Virus record (IMG/VR): IMGVR_UViG_3300009068_000028
Coordinates: 27,680 to 91,679 of that record
DNA: 64,000 nt
Direction: 5' to 3' (one strand)
Origin: a virus
Shown: piece by piece, positions 6,906 to 54,314 of the stretch
How positions within the stretch are numbered: position 1 is the stretch's first letter
Layout of the letters: the number at the start of each line of letters is the position of its first letter
Program-made: the position numbers and the translations under genes
The notes under the pieces: generated by a model
What the model was told of the DNA's origin: nothing
The model's database searches: none
The model's input: the letters and a program-made list of their open reading frames with translations, nothing else

Positions 6906-9900
6906 ATGAGTTACGCTGGGCTTCATGTTCATACCCACTACTCGCTTTTCGATGGCATTGCTACCCCACAGGAATATGTAAATCGTGCAGTTGCACTGGG
7001 AATGCCAGCCATTGCTATCACAGACCACGGAAGTCTTTCAGGACACCGTGAGTTATACCGCTCTGCTAAAGAAGCTGGCATCAAGCCAATTCTTGGCATT
7101 GAAGGGTACATTACTAAAGACCGCCTAGACCACACAGATAAAAAAGACAAGAACGACCCACTTGATCTTAACTATAATCACCTTATTATTCTTGCAAAGA
7201 ATACCACAGGTCTAGAGAATTTAAATAAGCTTAACGAACTTGCCTGGACAGAAGGTTTCTACAAGAAGCCTCGTATTGACTGGCAGATTCTTGAAAAATA
7301 CAAGGAAGGTCTTATTGTTACCTCTGGCTGTTTGTCGGGGGTACTGGCTAAAGCAATTGAATCAGACAATCTAGCCTATGCTAAGGAACACATCAGGTGG
7401 TGTAAGGATATCTTTGGTGACGACTATTACATTGAGGTTATGCCACATAATCCTGCAGAAGTAAACAAGATGTTGCTTGAGCTTGCAGACGAGTTTGGCA
7501 TTACACCTGTAGTCACACCTGACTGCCATCACTCAGATAAGAGCCAGAAAGAAATTCAAGAACTTAAACTAATCCTTAACTCATACTCAAATAAAACTGT
7601 TGGAGATTCAACATACAACGGTACAAAGAAGTATGACAATCTCATGGACAAGCTCGACTACCTCTATGGTGAAGACCGTCAGATGTCATTTAATAAGTTT
7701 GACATTCATTTGTTGTCAGATGAAGAGATGCACGATGCCATGAAAGCTCAGGGTATTGACCGTGAGGATATGTATGAGGCAACTCTTGAGATTGTAAACA
7801 AGATTGAAGATTATGATATCCAAGACTACCGTGACCTACTGCCTGTTCAGTACCAGGACCCAGACGGAGAGCTCCTCAGCCTCGCTCTGGAGGGCTTAAA
7901 GGCTAAAGGCTTAGATCAGAACCAAGAATATATTGATCGTCTTAACGAGGAGCTGACGATCATTAAGGACAAGAACTTTGGTCCTTACTTTCTAGTTGTA
8001 CGCTCTATGATTGCTTGGGCTAAGAAGGAAGGCATTATGGTTGGACCAGGACGTGGTTCGTCTGCTGGTTCGCTACTCTGCTATTCTCTTGGCATTACAG
8101 ATATTGACCCTATCATACACGGTCTACTGTTCTTTCGATTTATTAATCCAGAACGTAATGACTTTCCAGATATTGATACAGATATTCAAGACACACGACG
8201 TGAAGAGGTAAAGGATTACCTTGTACGTCAGTATCGTCACGTTGCCTCTATTGCTACATTCTTGCAGTTTAAGGATAAAGGTGTCGTGCGAGACATTGCT
8301 CGTGTGCTAAAGGTTCCACTTCCTGACGTTAATAAAGTTATGAAGCTTGTGGATACTTGGGAAGACTACTGCTCTTCATCATCTACAGCAGAGTTTCGTG
8401 AGAAATATCCAGAGATTGAACTATATGGAGAGCAACTGCGTGGTCGTATCCGTGGTACTGGTATCCACGCTGCTGGTGTTGTTACATCCAAGGAGCCTAT
8501 CTTTAAGTTTGCTCCAATGGAGACTCGTACAGCACCAGGAACCAAGGAGCGTATTCCTGTTGTTGCAGTAGATATGACAGAAGCAGAGCGTATTGGTCTT
8601 ATTAAAATTGATGCTCTTGGTCTCAAGACACTATCGGTTTTGCAGGACACGCTTGCAATCATTAAAGACCGTGGTGGCAAAAACATCGATCTTCTTAAGA
8701 TTGATATGGATGATAAGAATGTCTACGCCATGCTCTCTGACGGATTCACTAAGGGTGTCTTTCAGTGTGAAGCCACACCATACACCAACTTGCTAGTTAA
8801 GATGGGTGTCAAGAACTTTGCAGAGCTTGCTGCCTCTAACGCTCTTGTCCGTCCAGGTGCTATGAACACTATTGGTAAAGACTACATTGCTCGTAAGCAC
8901 GGTAAGCAAAAAATTACCTATCTTCACAGTGTTATGAAAGAGTTTACAGACGACACCTATGGATGCGTTCTGTACCAAGAACAGGTCATGCTTGCTTGTA
9001 CAAATCTTGGCGGTATGACAATGGCAGAGGCTGACAAGGTTCGTAAGATTATTGGTAAAAAGAAAGATGCTCGTGAGTTTGATGCCTATAAGGATCAGTT
9101 TGTAAGAGGAGCCTCTAGATATGTAACTACATTCCAAGCAGAAGAACTCTGGCATGATTTTGAGGCACACGCTGGTTACTCCTTTAACAAGTCTCACGCC
9201 GTTGCATACTCAACACTTTCTTACTGGACTGCGTGGCTAAAGTATCACTACCCAATTGAGTTTATGTTTGCACTTCTCAAGAACGAGAAGGACAAGGATG
9301 CTCGTACAGAGTACCTTATTGAAGCAAAGCGTATGGGCATTCCAATTAAGTTGCCACACGTCAACGATTCAGATGCTGACTTTAAGATTGAGGGCAAGGG
9401 TATTCGATTTGGTCTTAGTGGTATCAAGTTTATTAGTGATAACATTGCAGAAAAGTATATTGCTGCTCGTCCCTTCAACTCTTACAAAGAGCTAGAGGAG
9501 TTCTCGTTTGGCAAGGGCAACGGAGTTAACTCTCGTGCATTGTCAGCACTTAGACTAATCGGTGCTGCCACCTTCCCTGACCAGCCTCGCAATGATGAAG
9601 AGATTCGGGAGAACCTTTACGAGTATTTGAACCTGCCAGAATTTAATACAGCAATTCCACAGCACTATCACGCATTTATTAATGATGTTGAAGAGTATGA
9701 GGAAAAGGGTTCATTTATTATCATGGGCATTGTCAAGGGGATTAAGCGAGGCAAGGGCTGGTCACGAGTAGAGGTGCTAGATAAGACAGGTGCTATCGGT
9801 ATCTTTGATGAAGAGCAGTCCAAGGTTGAGGCAGGACGTACCTACCTTATCCTTGCAAGTGATAATCGTATCGTTACTGCAATCCCTGCAGATGAAATTA

Positions 9901-39272: not shown

Positions 39273-39342
39273 GCCTATAGACCTGTTTGACATCAGAGGA
39301 TACAGCTCGATACAGCCCATTTTAGAGCTTCTCAGAGCATAG

Positions 39343-39957
39343 TTATGCACAGTTTTATCCACAAAGATCTTACTGATATGGATATTATCTGACTGAAAGA
39401 AGATGTTTGAAAAGTTGTTTGATGTACTGAACTATATATAGTATGGATCGTAATGTCCAAACACTATATCTTGTGTCCCCAAACACCCAAATCCAGCCTT
39501 GTACCACATCTACCCCCATTTGTCAACCCCTATATGTAGTATATTTATGCCCAAAAAACCCTATATATTGTGTATAAATATATCAAAACATCCTATTTTA
39601 TATCAAAAATATCCACAAATCTGGGAAAAATAATCAAGGGTTCGTAATGTCTTTGTTTATAGTTATATAGGGGGAAATGCTTATACTTAGCTGCCCCAAA
39701 TATCTATACCAAACCATCCTATTAGACATGTCCACATTTCGGGGGTATCAAATAGAAGATCGTAATACCTTTAGTATATATATTACCTATAGGAGAAACA
39801 CTGTATCGTCTGATACCCTCCAAACTTTCTGGGATTTTTTGAGATGCCTCGTAATGTCTGTAGAATTTGGGAAAAATGTTTAGGGGTTCGTAATACATGT
39901 TCGTAAAGGGATGTTTGTTAGTATGTTATGACATGGCTCGGGCAAAAGTTATCCACA
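39343..39957. promoter_or_regulatory. Non-coding control region with DnaA boxes, NrdR-like box pairs and iteron-like repeats
   Basis: TTATCCACA at 39355 and 39949; NrdR-like 16-mers at 39429, 39461, 39527, 39558; four GGG-N15/16-TCGTAAT units. Confidence 0.7.
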
Positions 39958-39958
39958 G

Positions 39959-39991
39959 AAAAATCCCCCACCTGTGAGTAGATGGGGGATT
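39959..39991 (-). terminator. Intrinsic terminator of the reverse-strand block
   Basis: aatccccca...tgggggatt hairpin with a T-tract on the minus strand. Confidence 0.65.
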
Positions 39992-40003
39992 AGACTATTA
40001 CTG

Positions 40004-43000
40004 TTAGACCGAAGACATCAAATCGTCTAAATGCTCGAAGCCTGTATCGTCAATGCCAAGACCAGCAAGCAATAAGTCGAATGTCTCGTTGATGAAATTA
40101 GTAGCAAGGTCAGTCGTGTCTACGATACCTTCGTTGATTGCGTAAGCAAGTGGCAAACCCAAATCGTTGTATTCGATAAAGTCTACAAACGCTGTGTCTG
40201 TTCGATAGTTGAGCCAAATGTCAGACAGAATAACTGTCTTGTTCTCAAAGGTAGTCGTAGTCATTGTGCTTGTTCTCTTTCTCATCTTTTAGTAAATCTG
40301 CCATTAGCAGAATACGGTTGATAGTTACATTGGGACTGATTTGGTGAATATACATTGCTACCGCTTCCAAATCCAGTCGTAGGTCTGAAACAAGATTGCC
40401 GATTGTTTTGGCAACTCGTTCATTGTCTGTTATTACTTTTCGCATTTCTCTCCTCAATCCATTATACCAAAAAAATGGTGGGAACGCAAGTCCGAAAGGA
40501 AATAAGAAACCTACGCCCCCACCAGTTTGTAGACGGAACCCCCATTCAACGTCTACCTATCTAGTACTACATTGTACTAGAATCTGATATAACTATAGAT
40601 GGGTCCTTACGAATGTGATCGATTTCGATACCCCTCAGAATTTTGGTAATGCGTCGTGTAGGACTCTGGAGCTGGTCTGCAAACACCCACCAGTCACTGC
40701 CGTATTCATCCATCGGAAACTGGTCTGCAATCCAGGCAGTCTCATAGAAGTCACACTCAATGAGCACACCTGTCTCATACTTGCGTGTACCGTTGTCGTC
40801 AGACTCATAGATGTATGGTTCGATAGTTAGTTTGTCAGACCACGTAGTGCCAGCCTCTTTACTCCAATCCTCACGGTAGAAGATGTTGAGGTCAATCGTT
40901 CTATAGCCTTGCATTAGTACCACTCCGTTCGATATCCAGTTCCAGCACAGTTGCCACACGTTTCATCTTCCTCGCCATTAGCAGAGGCACACTGCTCACA
41001 CTCTACATCTCGTGAGACAGGAACTTCATAGTCTTCGCCATCTGGGACAGGGATTGTACCAACATAGTAACCCAAACGATTGACAGCGTGGTAACCACTA
41101 CAGATACTAATATAGTCGTCTCCAGCCAAGTAAGTCCAAACAAGTCCGTCTGCATTGTGTCGTACATCTTCCCAATCCTGAATCATCTCATAGCCAAGAC
41201 CAAACTTCTCTTCGGCTTCTTCCATTGTTATAATCATTACTAATCCTTTCTTAGAAGTGGAAGTCCACAGGGACGAGGAACCAAAGAGTATCATTCTCGA
41301 TACGGTCTTTGTTCATATGAACAGGGTTAGTTGACCAGTTGGCAAGGTCGTAGAAGTAAGAGTTGAAATCCCAATCACCTTGAATCATACCAAGCATTCT
41401 GCCAATACCATAGAGTCGCATACTATAATCCATAGCACCGTCAAACTCGTCAAAGACACCGTCAAGATTGATGTTGCTACGATTCCATTCATCACGGTAG
41501 CGATTGAATTCCGACATTCGTGCTTCGACACAATCCTTCAGTATCAATTCGAATGCTTCACTATCTTTAGAAGAAACAATCATGTTGATTGCTCCGTCAG
41601 TGTAGGGGTCGTTGTCAGTGTTGAATCGTCCACCACCAGTTACAAACCAGTCGTACCAAGCACCACCACCATATTCGTCACCAAGAATGTCTTGGAGTCT
41701 TTCTCGAACTTGGTCAATTGCTTCTTCAGGGCTGTCTGCTTTTACTGCGATGTATTGTAGAACGTGCATGTGTTTCCTTTTCTTTAGGGGTAGTATCTAT
41801 TTTACAGCATGGAGCGGTATTTGTCAAGTATCACACTTCTCACAGTATACCCTTGACCACCGACACGAAATGATCCTCGCATAGATAGCCATAGTCCTCT
41901 ACGTCTCGTTTGGTAGCAGGTTCCTTACACCAAATCATTTCACACACATAGATATATGGTTGCATTATTCGTTATCCTGAATGTCAAAGTCCCACTGTGC
42001 GTGGTTCTTGTATGGTTCGAAGTCGTCTATAATCCATTCGTCCAATGCTTGATAGGCTGCATCTTCACTCTCTGCTTCAACAGGAACGAGGTACTCAATC
42101 TGCACGGTTGCTGTGATTAGATATTTACGCATACATCCTCTTATCGTTAGTTACGAATACATCTTCCGACCACGGCTTCTCGGTAATGAAATAGCCAAGA
42201 CGATTGAATTGGCGGTAGCCATTCCAAAGATTAGCATACCGTCCGTCACCATCTACCATAGTCCATACATAGCAAGGAAGAGTAGTGTCAGGGATATCCT
42301 CAAGTTCTAAAGCCAATGGGGTAGTTGGCAGATAGGTGTCTTCCCATTCGTCCCAAGTAATCATTACTTATCTCCAAAGTTATTGCTGTCATAAGGGTCA
42401 ATGAATGCTTCCCAGTCACCGTCAGGCATATCCTCGTGAACAAGAATTGCTTTCTCGATTGCTTCTTCTTCGCTGTTTGCTTGAATCCAGTAAGTCGCCT
42501 GGTATTCTACTTGATATACTTTCACATTACTCCTCGTCCATAAATTTGATAAACACTTCTACTAACTGTAATGCTATTATACCAGTGAGGTACGACATAG
42601 AACTCATACTCTTGAATTCCTGAATCTTATCTAGAATCTGTTGCTTGGCTTCTTCTCGTTCACTCATAGGGACACCTCACCGTATTGGTCATAGTTCTCG
42701 GCAAGGCTTTCGTCTTCCCAATCTGAATTGAGATGCCACTTGGTTGCTTCGTTATTGAAAAGATTGACAAGCATATTCTCAGCCTCGTCGTCAAAGTGAC
42801 CAGTATCCCAATCACTGAATCCAACTACAGCAAACTTGATTTGGGCAGGGTATTTGATATGGTCATAGATATAAACCATTACCTTAGTTGTCATCTTCGT
42901 CCTCCTCAATCTCTTCTACCTCAACCTCGTACACACCGTCATAGTTTAGATTGTCGTAGTGATAACCAATCTCCTCTGCCTTTGCCTGACTGTCTGCTTC

Positions 43001-43048
43001 AATCGTGCCAGTAAAGGTGACTAGGGTTTTTACATAATACTGAGCCAT
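40004..43048 (-). CDS. Cluster of about 11 small, mostly acidic hypothetical proteins (e.g. 40004-40264, 40245-40445, 40567-40914, 40914-41237, 41251-41769, 41965-42132, 42125-42364)
   Basis: Tightly packed minus-strand ORFs with aaagga/ggag RBS. Confidence 0.6.
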
Positions 43049-43256
43049 TGGGCTACCTTTCTTTTTGGGTTACCTCTATTATATCGTTGACCACCGACAT
43101 CAAACTGGGTAAATTCGGGAGAATTCGTAATGAGTTCGTAATGATTCGATAATTACTGTTTGTTTATTATGTCAGCAGCCCGAGCTGCCTGTGGATAAGT
43201 CTGTGGAGATCCCCCAAAGGGGGAGGCAGTTTATACTGTTGCCCAGCAGTTACGGA

Positions 43257-44279
43257 TTATACTCCCAGCATTACGGAAGCGACTACACGAGCCAAGCGGT
43301 TCTTCTCTGCGTTGAGAGCAGGGTCAAGTCCACTAGCACCAGCGAGAATGTTCTCGTTGTTTCCGCCACGAGCGGTGCGATACCAGTCAAGGCGTTCCGT
43401 CAAGGCGTTGAGAGTACCCCAAGCCGTTCCAGTAATTGTGTTGTTGTATTGCCCAACATAAATGTCGTTGATAAGGTCAATCTTGTCGTTGTGCTTCTTG
43501 AAAGAACCTTTGGCATCTTTTTCTGGGGCAGGGTAAGCAAGAGAAACAATCTTGTCAAACTCTGCTTTAGTAACTTCAGTTTCAATCATAGCGTTAGCCA
43601 TAACAGAAAACTCGTCAAGGTAAGTCTGTGCCAAGCCAAGTGCTTCACGAGCAACCTGAACACGACCCTCTGCCGTCTGCGTGTGACGGATTTTGAACGA
43701 CTGCTTTACCTTACGGTTAGAACCAATACCGCCACCCAAAGCAAGGTTGAGAGTGTTAGCACACACAACACGGACAGGCGTGATACTTGCCATAATGGAG
43801 ATAGAGCCATCGTGAGATGTGTTGATAAGCAGGTAGTTCTCTACCTTGTCAGCACGACCATTGGGGTCAAGCACAATGTCGTTGTCAAGAGCGAGAGAGC
43901 CAAAAACTACACGACCACCCTTGATTGAACCAGCAGTCTCCCAACGACCACCACCGTCAAGCAGGTTGTCACCAAAGGTGAACAGGTCTTCGTTTTGGAG
44001 AGTGTGGTAGCGTTCACCCACAACGCCAAGCACATCATTCTGTGACTTGTCGAATGGGTTGGTACGACAAACAAAATAGTTTGTCTTGTCAGATACATAA
44101 CCTTCTGGGAACGAGAGTTCCTCAAGACGAACATTCCAGTTGTCAAGGTGAGCCAACTTGAGCATTTCGTCTGTGGTAACTTCGTCTTCAAAGACAGTCC
44201 CAAGTTTGTGCCAAGCAGGTTCTCGCAATGAAGCAAAAGCCACTTCGCCGTTAGCACCGATTTCTAATTCGTGAGCCAA
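43257..44279 (-). CDS. DUF932 / phage-plasmid-like protein
   Basis: 'REPAWHKLG', 'WETAGSIKGG', 'NTSHDGS', 'TPVRVVCANTL', 'IRHT'; TTG start after RBS gaaagga. Confidence 0.88.
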   Translation of the reverse strand: MAHELEIGANGEVAFASLREPAWHKLGTVFEDEVTTDEMLKLAHLDNWNVRLEELSFPEGYVSDKTNYFVCRTNPFDKSQNDVLGVVGERYHTLQNEDLFTFGDNLLDGGGRWETAGSIKGGRVVFGSLALDNDIVLDPNGRADKVENYLLINTSHDGSISIMASITPVRVVCANTLNLALGGGIGSNRKVKQSFKIRHTQTAEGRVQVAREALGLAQTYLDEFSVMANAMIETEVTKAEFDKIVSLAYPAPEKDAKGSFKKHNDKIDLINDIYVGQYNNTITGTAWGTLNALTERLDWYRTARGGNNENILAGASGLDPALNAEKNRLARVVASVMLGV

Positions 44280-44587
44280 TGTATTTCCTTTCGTTGTTGT
44301 TGATAATCTAATTATACACCTGACCACGGACATCTAACTATTCTGGGGAACATTCTGGGAGGTTCGTAACCTAAACGTAATAACTATGTTAGGACATGGC
44401 GGCTCGGGGATCCCAGCTGACAAAACAAAAATCCCCTGCTACCAGCAATCTATCCAGACGCTTCGCAGGGGACTTATGTATGGAAGTTTATTTCAATTAG
44501 ACGGCTTCTCATTCCACCGTAGCCCTAGTCTAACCTAGACGGTTATCATCTACACACCGACAAACTCACCCCATATTTCAGGGGAAG

Positions 44588-44659
44588 CGACCTCATAGGG
44601 ACTCGAACCCTAACCTCTACCTCGACAGGGTAGCGTGATAACCTTTTCACTATGAAGCC
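44588..44659 (-). tRNA. tRNA-Asp(GTC)
   Basis: Acceptor ggcttca/tgaggtc, anticodon arm ctacc-ctGTCga-ggtag, T arm taggg-TTCGAGT-cccta. Confidence 0.85.
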
Positions 44660-44718
44660 AATGTTTCTCTGTGTAGTTATAGATTGGGCAGTTTAGACTG
44701 TTACCCAGCAGTTGCTCG

Positions 44719-45177
44719 TTAGAGGAGTTCCATCACCGTGTTGTAGGTGCTGGCATTGACTTCCTCTTGGTTGGTCATTTTGAGAACTTTGAGGTTCTTT
44801 TTGAGCAAGTCCAACTTGGTGGTGTATTCACGACCATAGTGCTGACGGTCATTAGGGTTGGTGGGCTGTTCTGGTGCTTGGGGCAGAGCAAGCAAGTCAG
44901 TATTGACCTGAATGTTTACGCCATAACCACCATAACGGTTTCCAGCACTAACACGAACAAGAGCGTTGGTGTCATACTCGCCACCAATGTTGTCAGGGTT
45001 CTTGATTGCCTCAACAACAGCATTGAGAACCAACTCTTGGTGTGCCTTGTATGCCTGACGGTATGCTTCCATATCGGCAGGGTATGTAGCCATCTCTGCC
45101 TCAATCTTGGCAATAGTAGCCTCAACATCAGCAATCAGAGTAGCGGTTGGGATTTTCACGGAGAGTGAACGAGCCAT
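44719..45177 (-). CDS. Hypothetical protein
   Basis: 152 aa, RBS gaaagga, own promoter. Confidence 0.7.
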   Translation of the reverse strand: MARSLSVKIPTATLIADVEATIAKIEAEMATYPADMEAYRQAYKAHQELVLNAVVEAIKNPDNIGGEYDTNALVRVSAGNRYGGYGVNIQVNTDLLALPQAPEQPTNPNDRQHYGREYTTKLDLLKKNLKVLKMTNQEEVNASTYNTVMELL

Positions 45178-45294
45178 TGGTTTAGTCCTTTCGTTTGGCT
45201 TATATCTATATTATATCATTGGGGTATGACATATAACTATTGAGTTAGGTGGGCAGTTTGACTTGATACCCAGCAAGCAGACTAGGGTCTGACC

Positions 45295-45447
45295 TTAGTT
45301 GCTGGAAACCGTAGTCCAGCGAGGCTGTCCTGCGACATCAAGACGAACACGGAACGAACCGTTTGCGTTCTTGACAACTTCCTGAACGATACCAGAAACG
45401 CCAGACTTCTGCGTGGTGAACGACTGACCGATTTCGATTTGCGACAT
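45295..45447 (-). CDS. Small SH3/Tudor-like protein
   Basis: 50 aa 'MSQIEIGQSFTTQKSGVSGIVQEV...', preceded by TTGACA-17-TATAAT (45503-45531). Confidence 0.55.
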   Translation of the reverse strand: MSQIEIGQSFTTQKSGVSGIVQEVVKNANGSFRVRLDVAGQPRWTTVSSN

Positions 45448-45788
45448 TGTGTACCTTGCTTCCTTGTAGTGAGCCAACTGTTTTGTTTGCTTCGTTATTA
45501 CCATTATACAGGAAAGGAAAGAGTTTGTCAAGTCTTTTTCTCAACTTTTTTATTTTTTTTGTGGGGACTTCCGACTTCGTTTCCCTGCCTGTAATACAAG
45601 TATACCAACGACCACCGACATATAACTAATCGTTTCGGGGGATTTTTGTAACAGTTCGTAACCTGTTTGTCATAACATAGGCGGCTCGGGGATCCGCAGG
45701 GCATAGAGAAAGGACAGTTTATAAAGGACATGTCCAGGTCCTCGTCCAGTGCAGGGGAAAGGACAAACAATACCCTGCAGCTGGGAGC

Positions 45789-46438
45789 CTAACTCTCTTC
45801 GATTTCTCCTACATCGAATGACTGGACACAGAAATCTTCTACGTCTGTGTTGTAGCAATCAAGGTTGAGTTCCCCAACTTCGAAATGTTCAATGTCAAAG
45901 TCAGCAGGGACTAACATTGTTGCTTCAACAGTCAACGGAATCGTGACGGTAATCTCACGAAGGAGCGAGATACCAAGTACGTCAGCAACAGAATTCGCTA
46001 CTGTCTGAACGTCAATGTCCTCAGCAATTGCTTCCAAGAGAATCAATCGGATGTTCTCGTTTTCCTCGTTACGACGGATAGACATACCAAGATTATCTTG
46101 ATTGAGACCTGTAGCCTGTGCTTCCAAGTCTTTGATGTACTCATTCATTTTGCTAAGTACTGGGTGATTGTTTTCCATTAGTTGTCCTCTGCTTCTTGTG
46201 CGATACCGTTGAGTTCGTCAATTGTCTGTGTGAGTACCTGAAAGTCCTCTTCCGACAAAAGTAGTTGTGACATTGCGTGTGCCATAAGTCCTGTGATTGT
46301 CTGCCCGAAAATGTTGAGAGCAATCCGACGGTCTTCATCGGTTTCTGCGAACAGTACCATACCAGACGCAGTCTGTGTCATTACATCCTGCGAAACATCT
46401 TCGGCAACCTGCCGTAGTCCAAATGCTATGTCAATCAT
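45789..46438 (-). CDS. Two acidic hypothetical proteins (45789-46178, 46178-46438)
   Basis: Coupled ORFs behind a repeat promoter. Confidence 0.65.
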
Positions 46439-46487
46439 TCTTTGTCCTCTCGTTGTTGTATTACCATTATACCGTTCACCACGGACA

Positions 46488-46916
46488 TCAAACTATGTCC
46501 ATTAGTTTGCCATTGACTAATACCTGTGGTCGTTCAGGGTAGTGGCGTACCCAACCATAGTCCTCAAAGGTGAAACGGATACCATACACCTCATAAATAA
46601 ATGAACGTGCCTGTCCAGAGATATCTATGAATTTGTCAAGGGTAGACAAATCGAAATTCGGAATGTCACCCTGTTCAGAGTAGTCACCAATAACAACTAC
46701 CCTGTCACCAGTCCAACGACCAATGAAGTCTGCCATTACCTCTGCCCAGAAATCTCCACCACCACGCATAGGTGAGCAAGTGGTGAGGACATACATCATA
46801 TCCGAAAGTGATGCCTCGTGACCTGTGTGTTCACGTTGCTTCGCACCCAGACCAATGTCGTGAGGGTGAATGACTTCTTGCTTGTCAAGGTTGTAAATGC
46901 TGTGGTATTGTCCCAT
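46488..46916 (-). CDS. Conserved phage hypothetical protein
   Basis: 'MGQYH..YNLDKQE', 'GRWTGDRVVVIGDY'. Confidence 0.7.
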   Translation of the reverse strand: MGQYHSIYNLDKQEVIHPHDIGLGAKQREHTGHEASLSDMMYVLTTCSPMRGGGDFWAEVMADFIGRWTGDRVVVIGDYSEQGDIPNFDLSTLDKFIDISGQARSFIYEVYGIRFTFEDYGWVRHYPERPQVLVNGKLMDIV

Positions 46917-47306
46917 TGTGTGTCCTTTTCTTTGTCTGTCTTATAAGTATACCCCAGACCACGGACATGAAACTCTGGGAATCTGGATAGTTAGTCGTAA
47001 TTCTTAATAACGTTTAGGTAACGAAGCGGCTCGGGATCCCCTACCTACCTCACATATTTCTTATCGAGAACATCATAGATATATGCGTTAGGATAAGTAA
47101 CCTTGACAGAAAGTAGGAATCGCATAGCAGCTTCTTCATTACGGAATGTAGCGAGTTTACTCTCTTTACCCTCGCCAGCCCACACCTGATATTTGAGTAC
47201 ATAGTCAGTCATTAGTAGTTCTCTCCGAATATATCAAGTATAGCGGATACCTGTTCATCTGTCAACCTGTCAACAACTTTCCAGTCGATTACGTTTTCCC
47301 AGTCCA

Positions 47307-47916
47307 TTAGCAATCACCCTCTACGTCCTCAAAGATAAATGCGTCAAGACGGTGTTGGTCAACAAAAGTACCTGCGTCAACATACGGACTGTCCTTGTAA
47401 GTGACTCCGTGTGGCAATTCGATTACTTCATCATAGTCCCCTGCCGATACTGCCACAACGGCGGCAACGGCAGACTGTACCATAAACTGCGGAATTGGGG
47501 GGTAGCAATTCGATGAAAAGTGAATACTGATAGCGTCCTCTAAAGAGAGGTGAGCGTCAGTAGCGAGAGAGTAAGCGGTTGAGTATCCCATTAGTGTCCT
47601 TTGTTCGATAGTCTAATTATACAGGGTAGGTCTGACATCAAACTAATGTGTAAGTCCAAATTTCTGTTTCGTTGGCACAGTCCCAGATAGCCTTTTGTAC
47701 GAATTGGATAGCCAATTTTCCAGCGGTATCCAAGTCAGCCACCCAAACACTACGGTCACAAAACACTTCATCAGTTTCAGGATTAGTCCACACTCCAACA
47801 TATTGTCCGTCAAGTGTATCGTCAAGGGTAGTTTCACCAATAGCCACCCAATAGCCAGTCTTGGCGTGAGAGAGAATGAAAGTGTCATTCAGTTTGAGGT
47901 AAGTACCGTCTTTCAT
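47307..47916 (-). CDS. Two hypothetical proteins (47307-47591, 47638-47916)
   Basis: Each has an RBS aagga and its own repeat promoter. Confidence 0.6.
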
Positions 47917-48043
47917 AGTGTGTCCTTTCGTTGTCATACTATCATTATACCAAGTACCACCGACATGAAACTCTGGGATTTCGGGAAACATATCGTAAGG
48001 TTAGTAATGAGTTTGTTATGACAAATGGGCTCGGGCGACCCTG

Positions 48044-48595
48044 CTAGATAGCAGAGCCTCTCACGACAATCCAAATCAGAGCCTGTGCGGTGCGAGGTGT
48101 CAAACCAAACTCACCAGCAACCTTGCGAACGGCGTTAGCGATAGCGTGATACTGTCCCTGCGTAGGGCTGTCCGTAGGCATTTCGGCTGCTCTCATCATC
48201 CATACATCGACAACCACAGCGTCAGTATCGCCAAAGATAGCACGAGCGAATGCGTTAGTTTTGAGACCTTTGAGACCGTCAATGCCTTCGTTCAGCACAT
48301 CATTAGCCATTTTAGTGTTGTTTTTGAGACCATTCACGTGGTATCCAAGCGAGAATGCGACTGCCTTAGTGATGTTGCTTGCCCAACGCTCACGTGGGGA
48401 GAATGCGGAGACAACGCCAGCACCAATCTCAAGCGAGGCATTGAGGTTATTGGCAACCTGCTGTGCGACTTCCTGTGCTTCGTGATACCAGACACTAGCC
48501 TGTTCGACCTGTCCAAGTGTCGCCTTGAGAATGAGGTTACGGAACAAATCCGTAGCAGTAGCGGTTACGATTTCGTTTGCGGTGAGAGTAGTCAT
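48044..48595 (-). CDS. HhH-GPD-like DNA glycosylase-fold protein
   Basis: 'WY', 'SP..RW..N', 'GLKTNAF', 'VVVDVW..RA', 'QALIW'. Confidence 0.55.
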   Translation of the reverse strand: MTTLTANEIVTATATDLFRNLILKATLGQVEQASVWYHEAQEVAQQVANNLNASLEIGAGVVSAFSPRERWASNITKAVAFSLGYHVNGLKNNTKMANDVLNEGIDGLKGLKTNAFARAIFGDTDAVVVDVWMMRAAEMPTDSPTQGQYHAIANAVRKVAGEFGLTPRTAQALIWIVVRGSAI

Positions 48596-48796
48596 TACTT
48601 TGTCCTTTACTTTGTTGATAGTTCTATTATACATCTGACCACCGACATATAACTAGGAAAAAATCCAGGGGAATCTTAAAGTGTTTCGTAACTAAATTGC
48701 CCGATCCAGATCAGCTCGGGACCTGTGGATAACTTTTAGTCGTTAAACCACGCCAGGAATATGATTAGTATCCCCAGCGTGGCAACGATTACAAAC

Positions 48797-51700
48797 TCAA
48801 TCATTCTCTACGCCATTCCAACAAGCAGAGATAAAACGGTCAGCAATAAATCGTTTGTTGTCCTGTGCCATCAGTCCAGCAAAATCGTGAATGAGAATAT
48901 CGAATGTCTGCTCATCTATTTTGAGAGCGTAGGTGTTCAGCAATTCTGAAACGGCTACATAGTCTTTGCGTGTCATCATTAGGATACACTCACCCAAGCC
49001 ATAGCGGTACGCAAAAGGTGGTTGTAGTCACCAGACATACTCTCTTTGAGATATTCGTCAATTTCCTCTTTGGAAACTTCTGCGTTACGGAGAGCCTTCT
49101 GAACAGCACCCATAATTGCGTAGGCGTTGCCGTCTTGCCCAATGAGTTCGACTTCGATTTCTGGATACTTTGTCATTAGTTTTCTTCCTTTTCGTTTGCT
49201 TTTTGTTCTGCCAATTCGAGCATACGGTTTCGTTCTTTTTCCGTGAGCATAGCCCAAGCGTATCCAAACGCATAGGCGTAAGCCATATCACTTTGTCCGT
49301 TGTTTGCCTTTTTGAGATTGGCGATTACTTCATTTGAGCGGTTGATGTTACTTGTCATTTCTTGTCCTTTGTTCGTATTACTATTATAACCTAGACCACC
49401 GACATCAAACTATTCGTTTTCACGAATGGCTTGTGTCTTGATTGCCTTGCGAGTACGCAAACGATTTGGTCGATTGTCGTGAGTGCCAGCCGCCGATGAA
49501 CGACGGATTTCACGCATAGCCTCAATATAGGGCTTGTTCTCAATACCTTTGTGAGTTGGGTTCTTTTTCTTCATAGTCTTATTATACATCAGACCACGGA
49601 CACCAAACTGGGATTTTTGGGGAAAACGCAATAATGTTCTTAATTACGCAAGAAATCTGCGTGGCTCGGGGATCCTGTGGATAACCTCTGGGGATAACTC
49701 CCCTAGCAGGGAGCGATATCCTCATTTGGCACAATAGCAACGGTATCCGTTCCAAGCACCAGAATGTGCGACCATTCATCGCTCTGGAAAATCAACTCGG
49801 CACGACGGATATCCTCGTGGTCAGTACCAATGTAGTTTACGAATGTCATTTTTTTGTCCTTTTCTTTGTTAGTCTAATTATACTGCCTAGCACCGACATA
49901 TTACTCTGCGTTGCTCCCATAAAACTGGACTCCGAATCCGCATACGGTACAGTCTGCCCAAATTATCTCAGAGTCACCAAGGCGTTTAGGCTGTTGGTCA
50001 AGGTCTTCAGTGAATAACGTTCCCCTGTCGCAGATATAGCATTCTGCCTCATAGGTTATGACTCGCTTGCTCACGCTACCTCCGACAATTCGTCTGCGGA
50101 TACAGAGACATTACCGATGATAACGCCTATCGCACCCATGTTCACTAATTCGTTTGCCACAAAGTATCGGCATTCGAACGGAACATTATAGGCGATAAAC
50201 TTACCGTCTCCGTAGTTTGCTGTAATCTTGACCATCTTCATATTTCTGTCCTTTTCTTTCTCTAAGTATAACATCAACCACCGACACATAACTAGCCAGC
50301 GAAGTCCCAAGGGGAGACATCAAACTCCCAAACGCTCCAAGTGTCAGGCAATTGCCTAGCACAGCCTTCACAGGCTGCCTGAGAGATATTTCCCTGAGTA
50401 ACTCCAACGGTGGCGAGGTTGTCGCAGAATTCACATTCCATATTTTTTGTCCTTTCCTTTCTCTAATTATAACACTGACCACGGACACCAAACTATCTGG
50501 ATTCAGGAAAATTATCCACAGCCACGTAATTGCCCTGTGGATAAGTCGGCTCGGGCTCCGCAAAAATCTTGCGTGGGGAGAGATTTATTTGCTCTTGCGA
50601 GGCTCACTCTCTCCCCTGCGAGATTAGACTACATAACGCTTGTGGATTTCCATAGCGTCACGAGCGATAAGCGTAGTCCAGCCTTTGGGAGACTCGTCGA
50701 TTGCGACAGCGTAGGCAACATAAGGCTCGTTAGCCTCAATGCCAAACTGCTTACGGTAAGGTGTGCCAACATAAATTGACTCCACCTGCTTGACTTCGCC
50801 AACATATTTGTTGTCGTGAGACTGAATTGTGTATCCGATTAGTTCTTTCATTTTTTTCCTTTTCTTTCTTGTATTACAATTATACTGCCGACCACCGACA
50901 TATAACTATGCCCAAATATCTAAGAGGTTTTGGTAAGTGACCATTCGTGCGTAGTGAAAGGTTTCCATAACCTTATCGCCTCGCTCAATTGCGTCTGCCA
51001 TATCCTTTTCGTTGTCAGCGATAAATCCAACAATCATAGCGGTTGGGAGAGTGATTTCGTTTTTCATAGTTTGTCCTTTGTTCATACCTTCATTATACAG
51101 TCGAGCACCGACATGAAACCCATCAATTCAGGGGAAACGCAACTATCTTCATAAAGACGCAATAAACTTGTGCCGCCCGAGCCCAGGGTATGTCAGGACA
51201 AAATCCTCCCTAGAACCAATCTTCTTCAGTAGTAGACACACCAAGAATTCCGCCTGGCAAATAGAATGGGCGAGCATCCTGGTGACAGAAGAGGCAACGC
51301 TGAAAGCCATCAGCATATTGGAAAATCTGGGAAGTCTTTTCCCAGCAGTTGTGACAGGTGTGGACAGGGCGAGAGAATTCATCAAATGTGTTCATACACA
51401 CATTATACCAAAGACCACGGACACGTAACTCTGTGGATTCAGGAAAAAGGATCTTAATTACGTAAAGAGTTTGCTTGATCCAAAATGCCCGAGCCAGCCT
51501 GTGGATAACTTTGGGGCTAGGTTTATTTGCTGTGGATAAGTACAGGCTCACCCTAGCCCCTGTGGATAACTATGCCTTGTTTTCTTTGCCACCGTTTTGG
51601 ATACGGACAAGCGTACGGTCTACGATTTTGGAAACCAAACGCTTGGGGCTACGGTAAATTTCACTAGCCTTTGGGTAGACAATGGTGTAGGAAGCCCAAC

Positions 51701-53032
51701 CGACAGCATAATCGGTACGAGCGATATCCTTTTCCACGTCTTCACGGAAAGCGAGAAATTCGCCAAGCGTATTGGCAACGTGGACAACGGTCTTACCGTC
51801 CCAACGGCGTACGAGGTGGAATTCGATTTCTGGAATGCTTTTCATTTTTGTCCTTTTCTTGTTTTTGTTTATATCTAAATTATACCAGCGACCACGGACA
51901 CGTTACTCGTGGTGGACGGTGACAGCGAGTGCTCCCATTTCGAACATAGTTTCGACTGTGACATCTACCATCCAAGGGTCTACTAAAACGCTTACGTTTT
52001 TTGGGTTGGTGGCGAAGATTGCTTTGATTTCCATTTTTCTGTCCTTTGCTTATATTCATATTTTACCACGGAGCACGGACACGTAACCCTAGAATCCAGG
52101 AAAATTCAGGGGAATTTCGTAACAATTCGTAACTTAGTTGCTAACAGCCTGTGGATAACTTGCTCGGGCTGCCTGTGGATAACTTTTTGGGGGTGTGGAT
52201 AAGTCGATCTGGCTACTGTTCCAAATAACAGGCTAGACAAATCTCATAGGCAATAAATCCTAGAGTGTCTTCATCAATTTTTCGTCCACAGTCATTACAC
52301 TTAGTCACAGTCTATCGCTTCATCAGTTGGCGAGTGAGTGAGAGTGCTTCCTCAAAATCGTGATTTGTGAACACATTACCCTGAGCCAATTTCACCAGAG
52401 CGTTTAGGCGTAGTGCTTTTTGCTTAGGTGTGAGAGCGTTGATGTTGATGTCCTCAACTTCGTTGATGTCAATTTCGATTTCTAATTCGTTCACTTGATT
52501 TTCCTTTTCTTGATTACTTACAGTATGACAGAGAGCACGGACATGAAACTACATGCCCAGAGTCTGGCGAGCAACCAGAGTGATTTCCTCATCTGAGAAT
52601 TCTGTTTGGGTAGCCAACAGAGCGTTGTAGTTTTGGGTATCACGGTAGACAGCGTTTCCGTAGTCAGAGAATACCGATGTGATGGCTGAAATCTTAGCCT
52701 GTACCAATTCTTCTTTTGTAGTCATATTTTCTATCCTTTTCTTTTTCTTTATATCCACATTCTAACATCGACCACGGACATGAAACTATCCAGATAGGCG
52801 AATATCTGCCTATTGTTACGTTTTGTTACCATTCTGTTATAAATCTGGGGAATCTATATATAGTACGTAAATGTCTATGCTGCCACTACATCTAGCCCGA
52901 GCCCTGTGGATAACTTGTACCCAACTACTCCCTACTGAAACGCAGGGAGATAGCCAACAGAGCCAGAGCAGTGGCACTCAGTCCAGATACCTTGGCAGTC
53001 TGAGCAGTGATACACATAGTCTTGATTTTTCA
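48797..53032 (-). CDS. Array of about 14 very small hypothetical proteins (e.g. 48979-49176, 49176-49358, 49410-49574, 50071-50241, 50624-50851, 51210-51395, 51570-51845, 52312-52494, 52549-52725)
   Basis: Most have their own repeat promoter and an aaagga RBS. Confidence 0.55.
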
Positions 53033-53373
53033 TTTTTGTCCTTATCTGAAACCGTGAGATTTATTTGCTCTGAGAGGCTCATACCCTTTGGGTCTTATTT
53101 GCTCTGAGAGGCTCACTCTCTGCGGTTTCTCTGTTTGTTTATATTATCAGTATAGCCGTGACCACCGACACCAAACTATCAAAAACAGGCTATTTGCAAT
53201 GTATTTGCGTGAAATCAGGGGAATGTTGCGTAAGGTCATAAAACACGCAAGATTATTGCGTTTGGCTCGGGCATTTTTGTTCATCTATTGTTTACCTAAA
53301 TAGGCACGGTATCAGTAGTTATATGTCTGTGCTCAATGTTAGTATGAATACATACAAAGAAAGAAGAAATCAA

Positions 53374-53523
53374 ATGGAAATTCAAATCATAACAGAAACA
53401 AAGGCAATCTATATGCCATTCGCTCCAGTAAACAAATTGTCTGCTGACGAATATAACGAAATGCGAAAAATGCTTGCTGAAGCAGAAGCATTAGGCGTTA
53501 TCCGTGATTGGTCAATCTACTAG
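53374..53523 (+). CDS. Small hypothetical protein, divergent from the array
   Basis: Preceded by a plus-strand copy of the repeat promoter; a second such unit spans about 53577-53693. Confidence 0.5.
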   Translation: MEIQIITETKAIYMPFAPVNKLSADEYNEMRKMLAEAEALGVIRDWSIY

Positions 53524-54314
53524 TTAGATGTCAGACCTATCTGCCATACTGATTACATACAAACAAAGGACAAAGAATGACTAACACACAACGTCTCCGT
53601 TACTTGGAACTCATCGCTATCGCTAAGAGTGATGTGATGACGGCTAGTGAGTTCGATGAACTGCTAGGTCTCCAGAAACTTATCAAGCGATAGGTGGCAC
53701 TAGTCACTAGTTATTAGGTGGCACTAGTGTGCTCACTAATTTAGTGTGCTATTTTATTTTAGATCATGTATCGTACATATTTAGAAAATATTCAGATTTT
53801 GTACAAATTGGAAAATATAAAAATTTTCAGATTTCTGTGCGAAGGTAACACTCTATGCAATCGCATTCAAGAATTTTTTCAGGGGTATTAGAATCCTTCA
53901 TCTAATTCATCCCTAAAGATAGCCTGATCAGAGTTAAATAACATTCCAATAATCAATAGACCTATTGCAATAGCTACAATTGGAGCACAAAGAATAATTA
54001 ACAGTATGTGTGAATCTGTCACGGTAGATCATTCTCTCCTAAATCATCTCTTGTAATAAGACCAAAGTTCAATAGACAAACGTTCACAATCTTTCTTGAT
54101 ACTTTAAACTCTTTTGAGATCTGACGAGATGTTTTCTCTAATTGTACAAAATGTTGATTGAGAAATTCTTTTGTTAAGTGTTTTGTTTCCATATGAACAG
54201 TATATCATAAGCTCTGAGAGGCTCTCTAAGGAGATAGAATTTATTTTGGTATTTGGATTCGAGATAGCTTATTTTTCGACGGTATACAGCAAGCAACGCT
54301 TGCCTGATGTGTAT

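Follow-up and report, generated by a model that had tools for sequence, protein, structure and literature searches.

DnaA Boxes in Described Systems

DnaA is universal and essential, and its exploitation by phages beyond origins of the lambda or P1 type has hardly been explored. Here, we describe DnaA boxes in a 64,000-nt stretch of viral DNA (hereafter the window), which comprises bases 27680-91679 of the linear 91,679-bp IMG/VR virus record IMGVR_UViG_3300009068_000028, estimated to be 85% complete. Fourteen perfect boxes, defined as the 9-mer TTATCCACA on either strand, are found in its early-gene region, most of them at the boundaries of repeated promoter cassettes. Cellular promoters regulated by DnaA (dnaA, sda, ywlC, and yydA in B. 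subtilis; dnaA and nrdAB in E. coli) likewise have consensus intergenic boxes beside them, and cellular box clusters also titrate DnaA, with occlusion or a roadblock as the proposed mode of action (PMC2533591). Compared to these clusters, the phage boxes recur at seven promoters, are exclusively perfect, lie approximately 90-180 nt from the inferred start, and are placed at cassette boundaries beside a second, lineage-specific word.

The nearest published phage parallel is the injection-stop proposal for T5-like phages, which is itself unproven. Eight DnaA boxes occur within the first-step-transfer (injection-stop) region of these phages, and their function is hypothesised only (Davison, bioRxiv 10.1101/866236). 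The likeness to the window includes the placement of conserved boxes in DNA that a large lytic phage (the present one only probably lytic) expresses first, away from a known origin, as well as pairs with a 3-bp gap, such as 39343/39355 here, and the shared variants TTATCAACA and TTATCCCCA. However, half of the eight T5 boxes are degenerate and all lie within large inverted repeats of one untranslated region, whereas 14 perfect boxes are distributed here among promoter cassettes; in addition, the candidate host belongs to another phylum and there is no sequence homology.

Cluster A mycobacteriophages such as L5 and Bxb1 offer a second comparison within actinophages, since their stoperators are also numerous, asymmetric, transcription-oriented sites in short intergenic spaces (PMC6550527). 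Co-orientation with promoters is shared, applying to 11 of 14 boxes in the window and 54 of 71 (17 opposed) in the set of related loci introduced below. Arrest of elongation has been shown for stoperators and is proposed here for the DnaA-box cassettes. Stoperators are read by the phage immunity repressor and their motif co-varies with it (PMC6550527), whereas the box motif described here is invariant and equals the host DnaA box; neither an integrase nor a DNA-binding domain in the early open reading frames (ORFs) was found in the 85%-complete record, which together with the invariant site would set this phage apart from the repressor-based, temperate arrangement.

Repeated units of a hairpin and an early promoter between small early genes were reportedly described in T4-type phages by Arbiol et al. 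in 2010 under the name promoter-early stem-loop (PeSL) cassettes, which can spread by duplication or recombination. The cassettes of the window are also repeated hairpin-plus-early-promoter units between small genes, able to spread in the same ways, but they are longer and multi-part, and PeSLs are not known to have host initiator sites. With oriC, the basal unwinding system, and datA, the window shares the 9-mer, its flanks, the order of box, GC cluster, and AT-rich DNA, and a distal pair like one adjacent to dnaA; in contrast, its promoter-linked boxes are spread over 10 kb, and no clear DnaA-trios or DNA unwinding element (DUE) could be made out by eye. None of the compared systems has the combination of perfect host-initiator boxes at phage cassette boundaries, each with a lineage-specific word, and a search of the literature library found no paper linking DnaA boxes to early promoters or actinophage promoters.

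Number and Distribution of the Boxes

A first-pass annotation of the window had listed 14 perfect boxes, and each of them (TTATCCACA or TGTGGATAA; 3 on the plus and 11 on the minus strand) was found in its place as an exact match to the DnaA-box sequence class, the relaxed form of which is TTWTNCACA. Dinucleotide-preserving shuffles of the 64-kb window gave 0.70 such sites on average and at most 4. The count over the whole record that the annotation had suggested as a check returned no perfect box beyond these 14, which all lie inside 13.6 kb of 91.7 kb, so that no comparable density exists elsewhere in the record. The one-mismatch boxes at 39343, 39609, 49689, and 52751 are all present, and one-mismatch variants as a class are weakly enriched (35 versus 20 expected). 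The finer details also hold, namely the 31- and 30-bp spacings in the trio at 51500-51569, the extended context CCTGTGGATAA(C/G)T (nine copies), the presence of GCTCGGG or CCCGAGC within about 35 nt of 11-12 of the 14 boxes, and the common orientation of eleven boxes, in which TTATCCACA is on the transcribed-sense strand. The annotation had correctly recognised the match to the DnaA box, the dispersal of the sites, and their association with GCTCGGG, but the intergenic gaps for which it took the context are repeated promoter cassettes. The arrangement is, as had been suggested, unlike a compact oriC, since the promoter-linked boxes form seven groups of one to three over 9.7 kb instead of several boxes inside a few hundred bp; the one compact site, at 39343-39363, consists of just two boxes.

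Promoter Cassettes and Box Sites

The early-gene block (40004..53050) comprises approximately 35 small ORFs, all on the minus strand, and has a GC content of about 45%, compared to about 38% in its flanks. Repeated motif families define approximately 22 copies of a phage-specific minus-strand promoter (41855..53171) with the consensus TAGTTW-N-RTGTCSGTGGTC-N4-5-TATAMT (TATAAT or TATACT), followed by an AAAGGA ribosome site and ATG. The promoter cores start at 41855, 43089, 44322, 45610, 46477, 46957, 47946, 48637, 49394, 49592, 49879, 50276, 50477, 50890, 51094, 51413, 51890, 52071, 52533, 52770, and 53160. Short-form promoters abut the preceding gene, and the long forms (about 11 copies) have an extra upstream module. 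Along the direction of transcription, the end of the gene before it is followed in the long cassette by a hairpin in the RNA (usually present), zero to three TTATCCACA boxes, CCCGAGC (or the complement), TTACGNA once or twice, TTCCCCWGAAT, and the promoter. Boxes are found in seven long forms (cores 43089, 48637, 49592, 50477, 51413, 52071, and 52770), where they lie 56-145 nt upstream of the core start, directly after the preceding gene.

Following transcription through the block, the first site is a single minus-strand box (52905..52913), followed by GGCTCGGGC, 132 nt upstream of core 52770. Next comes a trio of co-oriented perfect boxes on the minus strand (52150..52202; spacing 20 and 24 nt), located 76-120 nt upstream of core 52071, with CCCGAGC between its second and third boxes and orthologous trios in the related loci L068, L074, and L061. 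A second minus-strand trio, also perfect and co-oriented (51500..51569; spacing 30 and 31 nt), lies 84-145 nt upstream of core 51413; its first box adjoins the stop codon with which the upstream gene ends, GCTCGGGC follows the third box, and the middle box occupies a hairpin loop (stems 51552-51560 and 51513-51521). Upstream of core 50477, two perfect boxes form a head-to-head inverted pair on both strands (50512..50544; box 50512 is the inverted partner of 50536), separated by a 15-nt spacer and preceded by GCCCGAGC. At 49676..49697 on the minus strand, a perfect box stands in tandem with a one-mismatch box (TTATCCCCA, 49689) and is followed by CCCGAGC, 81 nt upstream of core 49592. The remaining two promoter-linked sites are single minus-strand boxes, one (48724..48732) followed by CCCGAGC and situated 84 nt upstream of core 48637, which serves the DUF7178 gene, and the other (43190..43198) followed by GCTCGGGC and situated 98 nt upstream of core 43089, which serves a 54-aa gene.

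Two sites lie on the plus strand at the far end of the region. An opposite-orientation box (39949), beside GCTCGGGC (together 39936..39957), heads a degenerate last cassette, just past the terminator hairpin (39962-39991) that closes the early block. Beyond it, a distal tight pair (39343..39363), in which TTATGCACA (39343) is followed after a 3-nt gap by TTATCCACA (39355) and then by GATC and AT-rich DNA, is located in a 730-nt non-coding stretch (39273-40003).

The GC word that accompanies the boxes is of the CYCGRG type and occurs in 14 copies by motif count (CCCGAGC/GCTCGGG, 39936..53272). It is found 1-5 nt from the box wherever a cassette has a box. All 14 CYCGRG sites of the 91.7-kb record have the form CCCGAG/CTCGGG, fall at 39937-53266 of the window, and are confined to cassette boundaries; the record beyond the early region has none, compared to about 27 expected from base composition and about 3 from a Markov model. 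The boundary word is therefore the only copy left of a restriction-type site, a finding that suggests an enzyme or a binding partner specific for this sequence. Other short palindromes are also depleted from the 91.7-kb genome: GCGC, CCGG, and GGCC do not occur (approximately 110 of each expected from base composition and 41-67 from the Markov model), and CGCG occurs 3 times.

The Phage and Its Candidate Host

The DNA belongs to an uncultured, putatively actinobacterial phage, a distant relative of Streptomyces phages (Stanwilliamsviridae), and is neither a chromosome nor a plasmid. For replication, genes of the window specify a DnaB-type helicase, primase, SSB, and DnaE-type polymerase, and for recombination a UvsX-like recombinase, Cas4-type exonuclease, and RuvC-like resolvase, together with the large terminase, a class Ib ribonucleotide reductase, glycosyltransferases, and five tRNAs. 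Despite the presence of DnaB, primase, SSB, and DnaE, no recognisable replication initiator was found among the phage genes. The polymerase is 54-56% identical to those of the Streptomyces phages BillNye, Wakanda, and others in Stanwilliamsviridae, and a megablast of the region against phages returned no nucleotide-level relative among cultured ones. An operator of the SPbeta SPBRE/MrpR kind was considered as well and rejected, because the phage is not SPbeta-like and its DnaE is closest to that of Streptomyces phages.

The phage NrdE is 75-78% identical to Actinomycetota NrdE, with matches mainly in Microbacteriaceae and in metagenome-assembled genomes of small size (1.1-1.6 Mb) and of river or lake origin, and the DUF7178 early protein has nearly all of its homologues in actinophages. 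A tyrosine or serine integrase was not found in the 85%-complete record. On the basis of this gene content, the NrdE and DUF7178 homologues, and the lack of a detected integrase, the phage is probably lytic, and its host, judged by NrdE similarity, would be a low-GC, likely freshwater actinobacterium.

Conservation in Related Phages

A scan of IMG/VR with the promoter core revealed many uncultured phage contigs with multiple copies, from which 26 related loci were picked; with the window, they form a clade set of 318 kb in total. In this set, the zone between −170 and −40 relative to a promoter core accounts for 8.8% of the sequence and contains 50 of 53 same-orientation perfect boxes, and perfect boxes far exceed degenerate ones within it. 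The first-pass annotation had left the choice among origin, titration, and promoter roles undecided, and this concentration in the promoter zone speaks for a role tied to promoters or boundaries more than for an origin of the plasmid type. The 52 unique contexts give a clade consensus 13-mer, A[G/C]TTATCCACAG[G/C], with A at −2 and G at +1 each in 49 of 52. Five relatives were searched whole (relative records are 27-87% complete), and the boxes are again limited to the early region. Two near-complete relative records have a reversed tight pair (12 nt from start to start) at the far end of that region.

Box presence is largely conserved for each orthologous promoter. The 54-aa gene (43048) is boxed in 4 of 5 relatives and the DUF7178 gene in 3 of 7, and the DUF932 promoter and several others are box-free in 5-15 relatives. 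Orthologous modules retain their boxes, whereas the neighbouring GC word is swapped between lineages: it is CCCGAGC in the window phage, L068, L050, and L029 and GGCGCA/TGCGCC in L062, L074, L026, and L061. In a more distant lineage, the GC word is GGGCGCGG and the promoter core is TGTCAGTGGTC instead of TGTCSGTGGTC. A clade of abundant, uncultured, probably freshwater actinobacterial phages retains perfect boxes at defined places in its early cassettes.

Across IMG/VR, the 14-mer AAGTTATCCACAGG is, among the matches listed, mostly a solitary or a tightly clustered site; in those matches, tight clusters, which span up to 350 bp, are common in the viral contigs with the extended box. An unrelated IMG/VR contig (L260:5976-6124; reverse strand offsets 7103-7251) has at least 7 co-oriented perfect boxes in about 150 nt. 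BillNye has four boxes in a compact cluster, located in a non-coding region of 1.3 kb that contains iteron-like repeats.

The Candidate Reader of the Boxes

Taken together, the 14 sites can be read as high-affinity sites for host DnaA that act on early transcription at cassette boundaries, to which we assign a probability of roughly 45%; the binding of DnaA, as well as any effect of such binding, would be a prediction from sequence. TTATCCACA is commoner than TTGTCCACA in five genomes of the candidate-host lineage, and box clusters are found on both sides of dnaA in the three genomes where dnaA was found. These clusters, from Actinomycetota of 1.1-1.6 Mb, share the flanks of the phage sites, with A at −2 in 25 of 33, G at −1 in 22 of 33, and G at +1 in 21 of 33. 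The E. coli R1 and R4 boxes also have G on both sides. Furthermore, the invariance of the box, while the adjoining motif is swapped, points to a conserved host reader.

A competitor for this role is a phage-encoded regulator, either a small early protein or a virion-delivered one, that would read an 11-13-mer in a stoperator-like manner, the identity to the DnaA box being coincidence or mimicry. In its favour, the conserved 13-mer is longer than 9 nt and almost never degenerate, and the sites are asymmetric, dispersed, and transcription-oriented, as stoperators are (PMC6550527). Room for it exists in more than 30 early ORFs without assignable function and in records that are 27-87% complete; Pfam and PHROGs searches of about 30 early ORFs found no DNA-binding domain and matched only DUF932, DUF7178, and phrog_1933, a family of unknown function. 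However, since stoperator motifs co-vary with their repressor (PMC6550527), the site of a phage regulator would be expected to drift likewise, and here the motif is constant across lineages and it is the neighbouring word that drifts. The flanks match those of the host boxes beside dnaA, an immunity repressor is not expected because the 85%-complete record yielded no integrase, and six-frame searches of this record and five relatives gave no candidate for DnaA domain IV (Bac_DnaA_C, PF08299) at E<=1. A phage regulator appears unlikely.

Several observations nevertheless weigh against the host-DnaA reading. Weak boxes are nearly absent, with about 50 perfect sites compared to an excess of about 18 one-mismatch sites, for which a stricter reader is possible; cellular DnaA targets, unlike the phage sites, combine strong boxes with weak ones. 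Conservation of G at +1 and of G/C at +2 exceeds that seen in the host clusters, which also fits a stricter reader, and such a reader of phage origin could be hidden among the many ORFans or in the missing 15% of the genome. Boxes occur at only 7 of about 24 promoters, and the proximal ones lie 56-132 nt from the core, approximately 90-180 nt from the inferred start, at variable and unphased distances. The bias in position and orientation may stem from cassette duplication rather than selection. Finally, the related Streptomyces phage BillNye has TTATCCACA, whereas Streptomyces prefers TTGTCCACA.

Proposed Function

Under the host-DnaA reading, DnaA is most likely to occupy the upstream end of some early-promoter cassettes and to act there in cis on transcription. 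Bound DnaA could stop read-through from the upstream unit as a roadblock or insulator, or it could serve the promoter approximately 90-180 nt downstream as an architectural or activating factor. The large and variable distance between box and core makes classical activator contact unlikely, and the position of the boxes directly after the upstream unit, co-oriented with transcription, provides the geometry of a boundary or roadblock, a mode of repression that has been proposed, along with occlusion, for cellular box clusters (PMC2533591). Because only perfect sites are used, their occupancy is predicted to be independent of whether DnaA is in its ATP or ADP form, and this independence would favour an architectural or insulating role over the sensing of replication state. 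If DnaA binds, the locus offers a testable case of phage early transcription, or host shut-off, wired to the replication initiator, and a natural set of insulated, DnaA-addressable promoter cassettes.

As a by-product or parallel purpose of such binding, the phage would compete with the host chromosome for DnaA. This competition could also be the primary function, in which case the boxes would titrate host DnaA, block host re-initiation, and de-repress DnaA-controlled genes, and the cassettes would be a mode of spread. The candidate-host genomes have 12-32 TTRTCCACA sites each, 10-22 of them being TTATCCACA; given so few host sites, a single phage genome with 14 boxes roughly doubles the number of high-affinity sites, and replication multiplies that effect. 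Titration is well suited to exclusively perfect, nucleotide-state-independent sites, and it has precedents in the datA locus of E. coli and the box clusters of B. subtilis (PMC2533591). It does not need the fixed orientation, the adjacency to a GC word, or the conserved, gene-specific presence of the boxes, however, and known sinks are tight clusters, not single sites over 13 kb. In a comparison with datA, a tight cluster of about 4-5 boxes, the trios span 53-70 bp, and the 14 phage boxes in total are as many as a whole candidate-host genome has. We consider titration as the primary function to be doubtful.

Beside the distal box pair, two pairs of 16-mers (39429..39573) resemble NrdR operators; they start at 39429/39461 and 39527/39558, with a spacing of 31-32 nt, which is canonical for NrdR operators. 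At a threshold of <=3 mismatches to an NrdR consensus, two pairs are present here and none in shuffles. An ATP-cone (NrdR) gene was not found in the record, and the phage has ribonucleotide reductase genes. From their sequence, the pairs look like sites for a second host regulator. Operator-like pairs without a phage NrdR also favour titration, by which NrdR would be sequestered in the same way as DnaA and the supply of deoxynucleoside triphosphates (dNTPs) raised. In a broader form of this idea, the early region would be a protein-free device for host takeover, in which the DnaA-operator array and the NrdR pairs, upon entry and amplification, strip a small-genome host of these regulators, while the bound DnaA also partitions the early units. 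If this is true, host initiation would be stopped and dNTP synthesis released in a host that owns 10-22 perfect boxes, and the GC word, as the surviving copy of a purged restriction-type word, would be read by a lineage-specific partner; we regard such a device as unlikely. A weaker NrdR-like pair is found at 52851/52883.

A Possible Role as Replication Origins

Some of the sites could alternatively be replication origins, at which the DNA would be opened, or the phage DnaB loaded, by host DnaA, perhaps aided by transcription from the adjacent promoter. The set of DnaB, primase, SSB, and DnaE genes without a recognisable initiator agrees with such a role, as does the composition of each module from box, GC cluster, and AT-rich DNA, an order comparable to that of the box-to-DUE junction at E. 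coli R1. BillNye has its compact four-box cluster, and tight clusters are common in viral contigs among the matches listed. However, seven separate promoter-tied sites over 10 kb do not make an origin layout, and the UvsX, RuvC, and Cas4 genes suggest that recombination-driven replication is available. By eye, no clear 3-nt periodicity of DnaA-trios was seen downstream of the boxes, although AT-rich DNA does follow the GC word and the distal pair. Origins would account at best for the distal pair and perhaps the trios; as an explanation of the array they are very improbable, and the dispersed boxes are where an origin role is least likely.

The best origin candidate is the distal pair (39343-39363). 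It resembles a pair beside dnaA in a candidate-host genome, in which, likewise, a one-mismatch box is followed after a 3-nt gap by a perfect one and then by GATC and AT-rich DNA, and its orthologous place has 2-5 boxes in relatives, with an expansion to 4-5 in L023. Because of this likeness, the expansion in L023, the four-box cluster of BillNye, and the lack of a recognisable phage initiator, an origin role is plausible at this pair.

Other Features of the Early Region

The early block also contains, on the minus strand, genes for a DUF932 protein (43257-44333), the DUF7178 protein (48044-48634), and tRNA-Asp (44587-44659), and an Rfam scan of 39-54 kb gave no match except the tRNA. Two rightward copies of the same promoter family are located on the plus strand at 53316 and 53521 (range 53316-53574), and a point of divergent transcription lies at approximately 53.2-53.3 kb. 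The phage-specific promoter class has no recognisable −35 element and has a conserved spacer 12-mer (RTGTCSGTGGTC) instead. Scans for sigma-70 promoters and terminators showed no overall enrichment. Three near-perfect sigma-70-type promoters are found inside the block on the minus strand, at 47237-47265 (TTGACA-17-TATACT), 45503-45531 (TTGACA-17-TATAAT, 12/12), and 41799-41827 (TTGACA-17-TAAAAT), and these may drive the true immediate-early genes, one of which perhaps specifies the RTGTCSGTGGTC promoter class.

In the long cassettes, the motifs TTACGAA, TTACGTAA, and TTGCGT occur once or twice at about 30-70 nt upstream of the core, as at 43100-43150, 44340-44380, 52090-52120, and in other long cassettes, and in some cases form the palindrome ACGCAA-N5-TTGCGT. 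Their appearance is that of operators for a further factor. The BillNye box cluster (L018, record position ~119240-119310) likewise has TTCGTAA repeats on its flanks.

A repeated hairpin motif has four minus-strand copies (50585-50607, 51523-51551, 53061-53082, and 53095-53116), which consist of a 9-bp outer stem and a short inner stem, with GTGAGCCT and GCAAATAA as conserved words in the loop. It had no match in Rfam. In the copy at 51523, a DnaA box lies in the inner loop. The outer stem covaries in one relative (CTAGG versus TATCGA), and two of the copies stand in tandem within the first transcript of promoter 53160, which is apparently non-coding.

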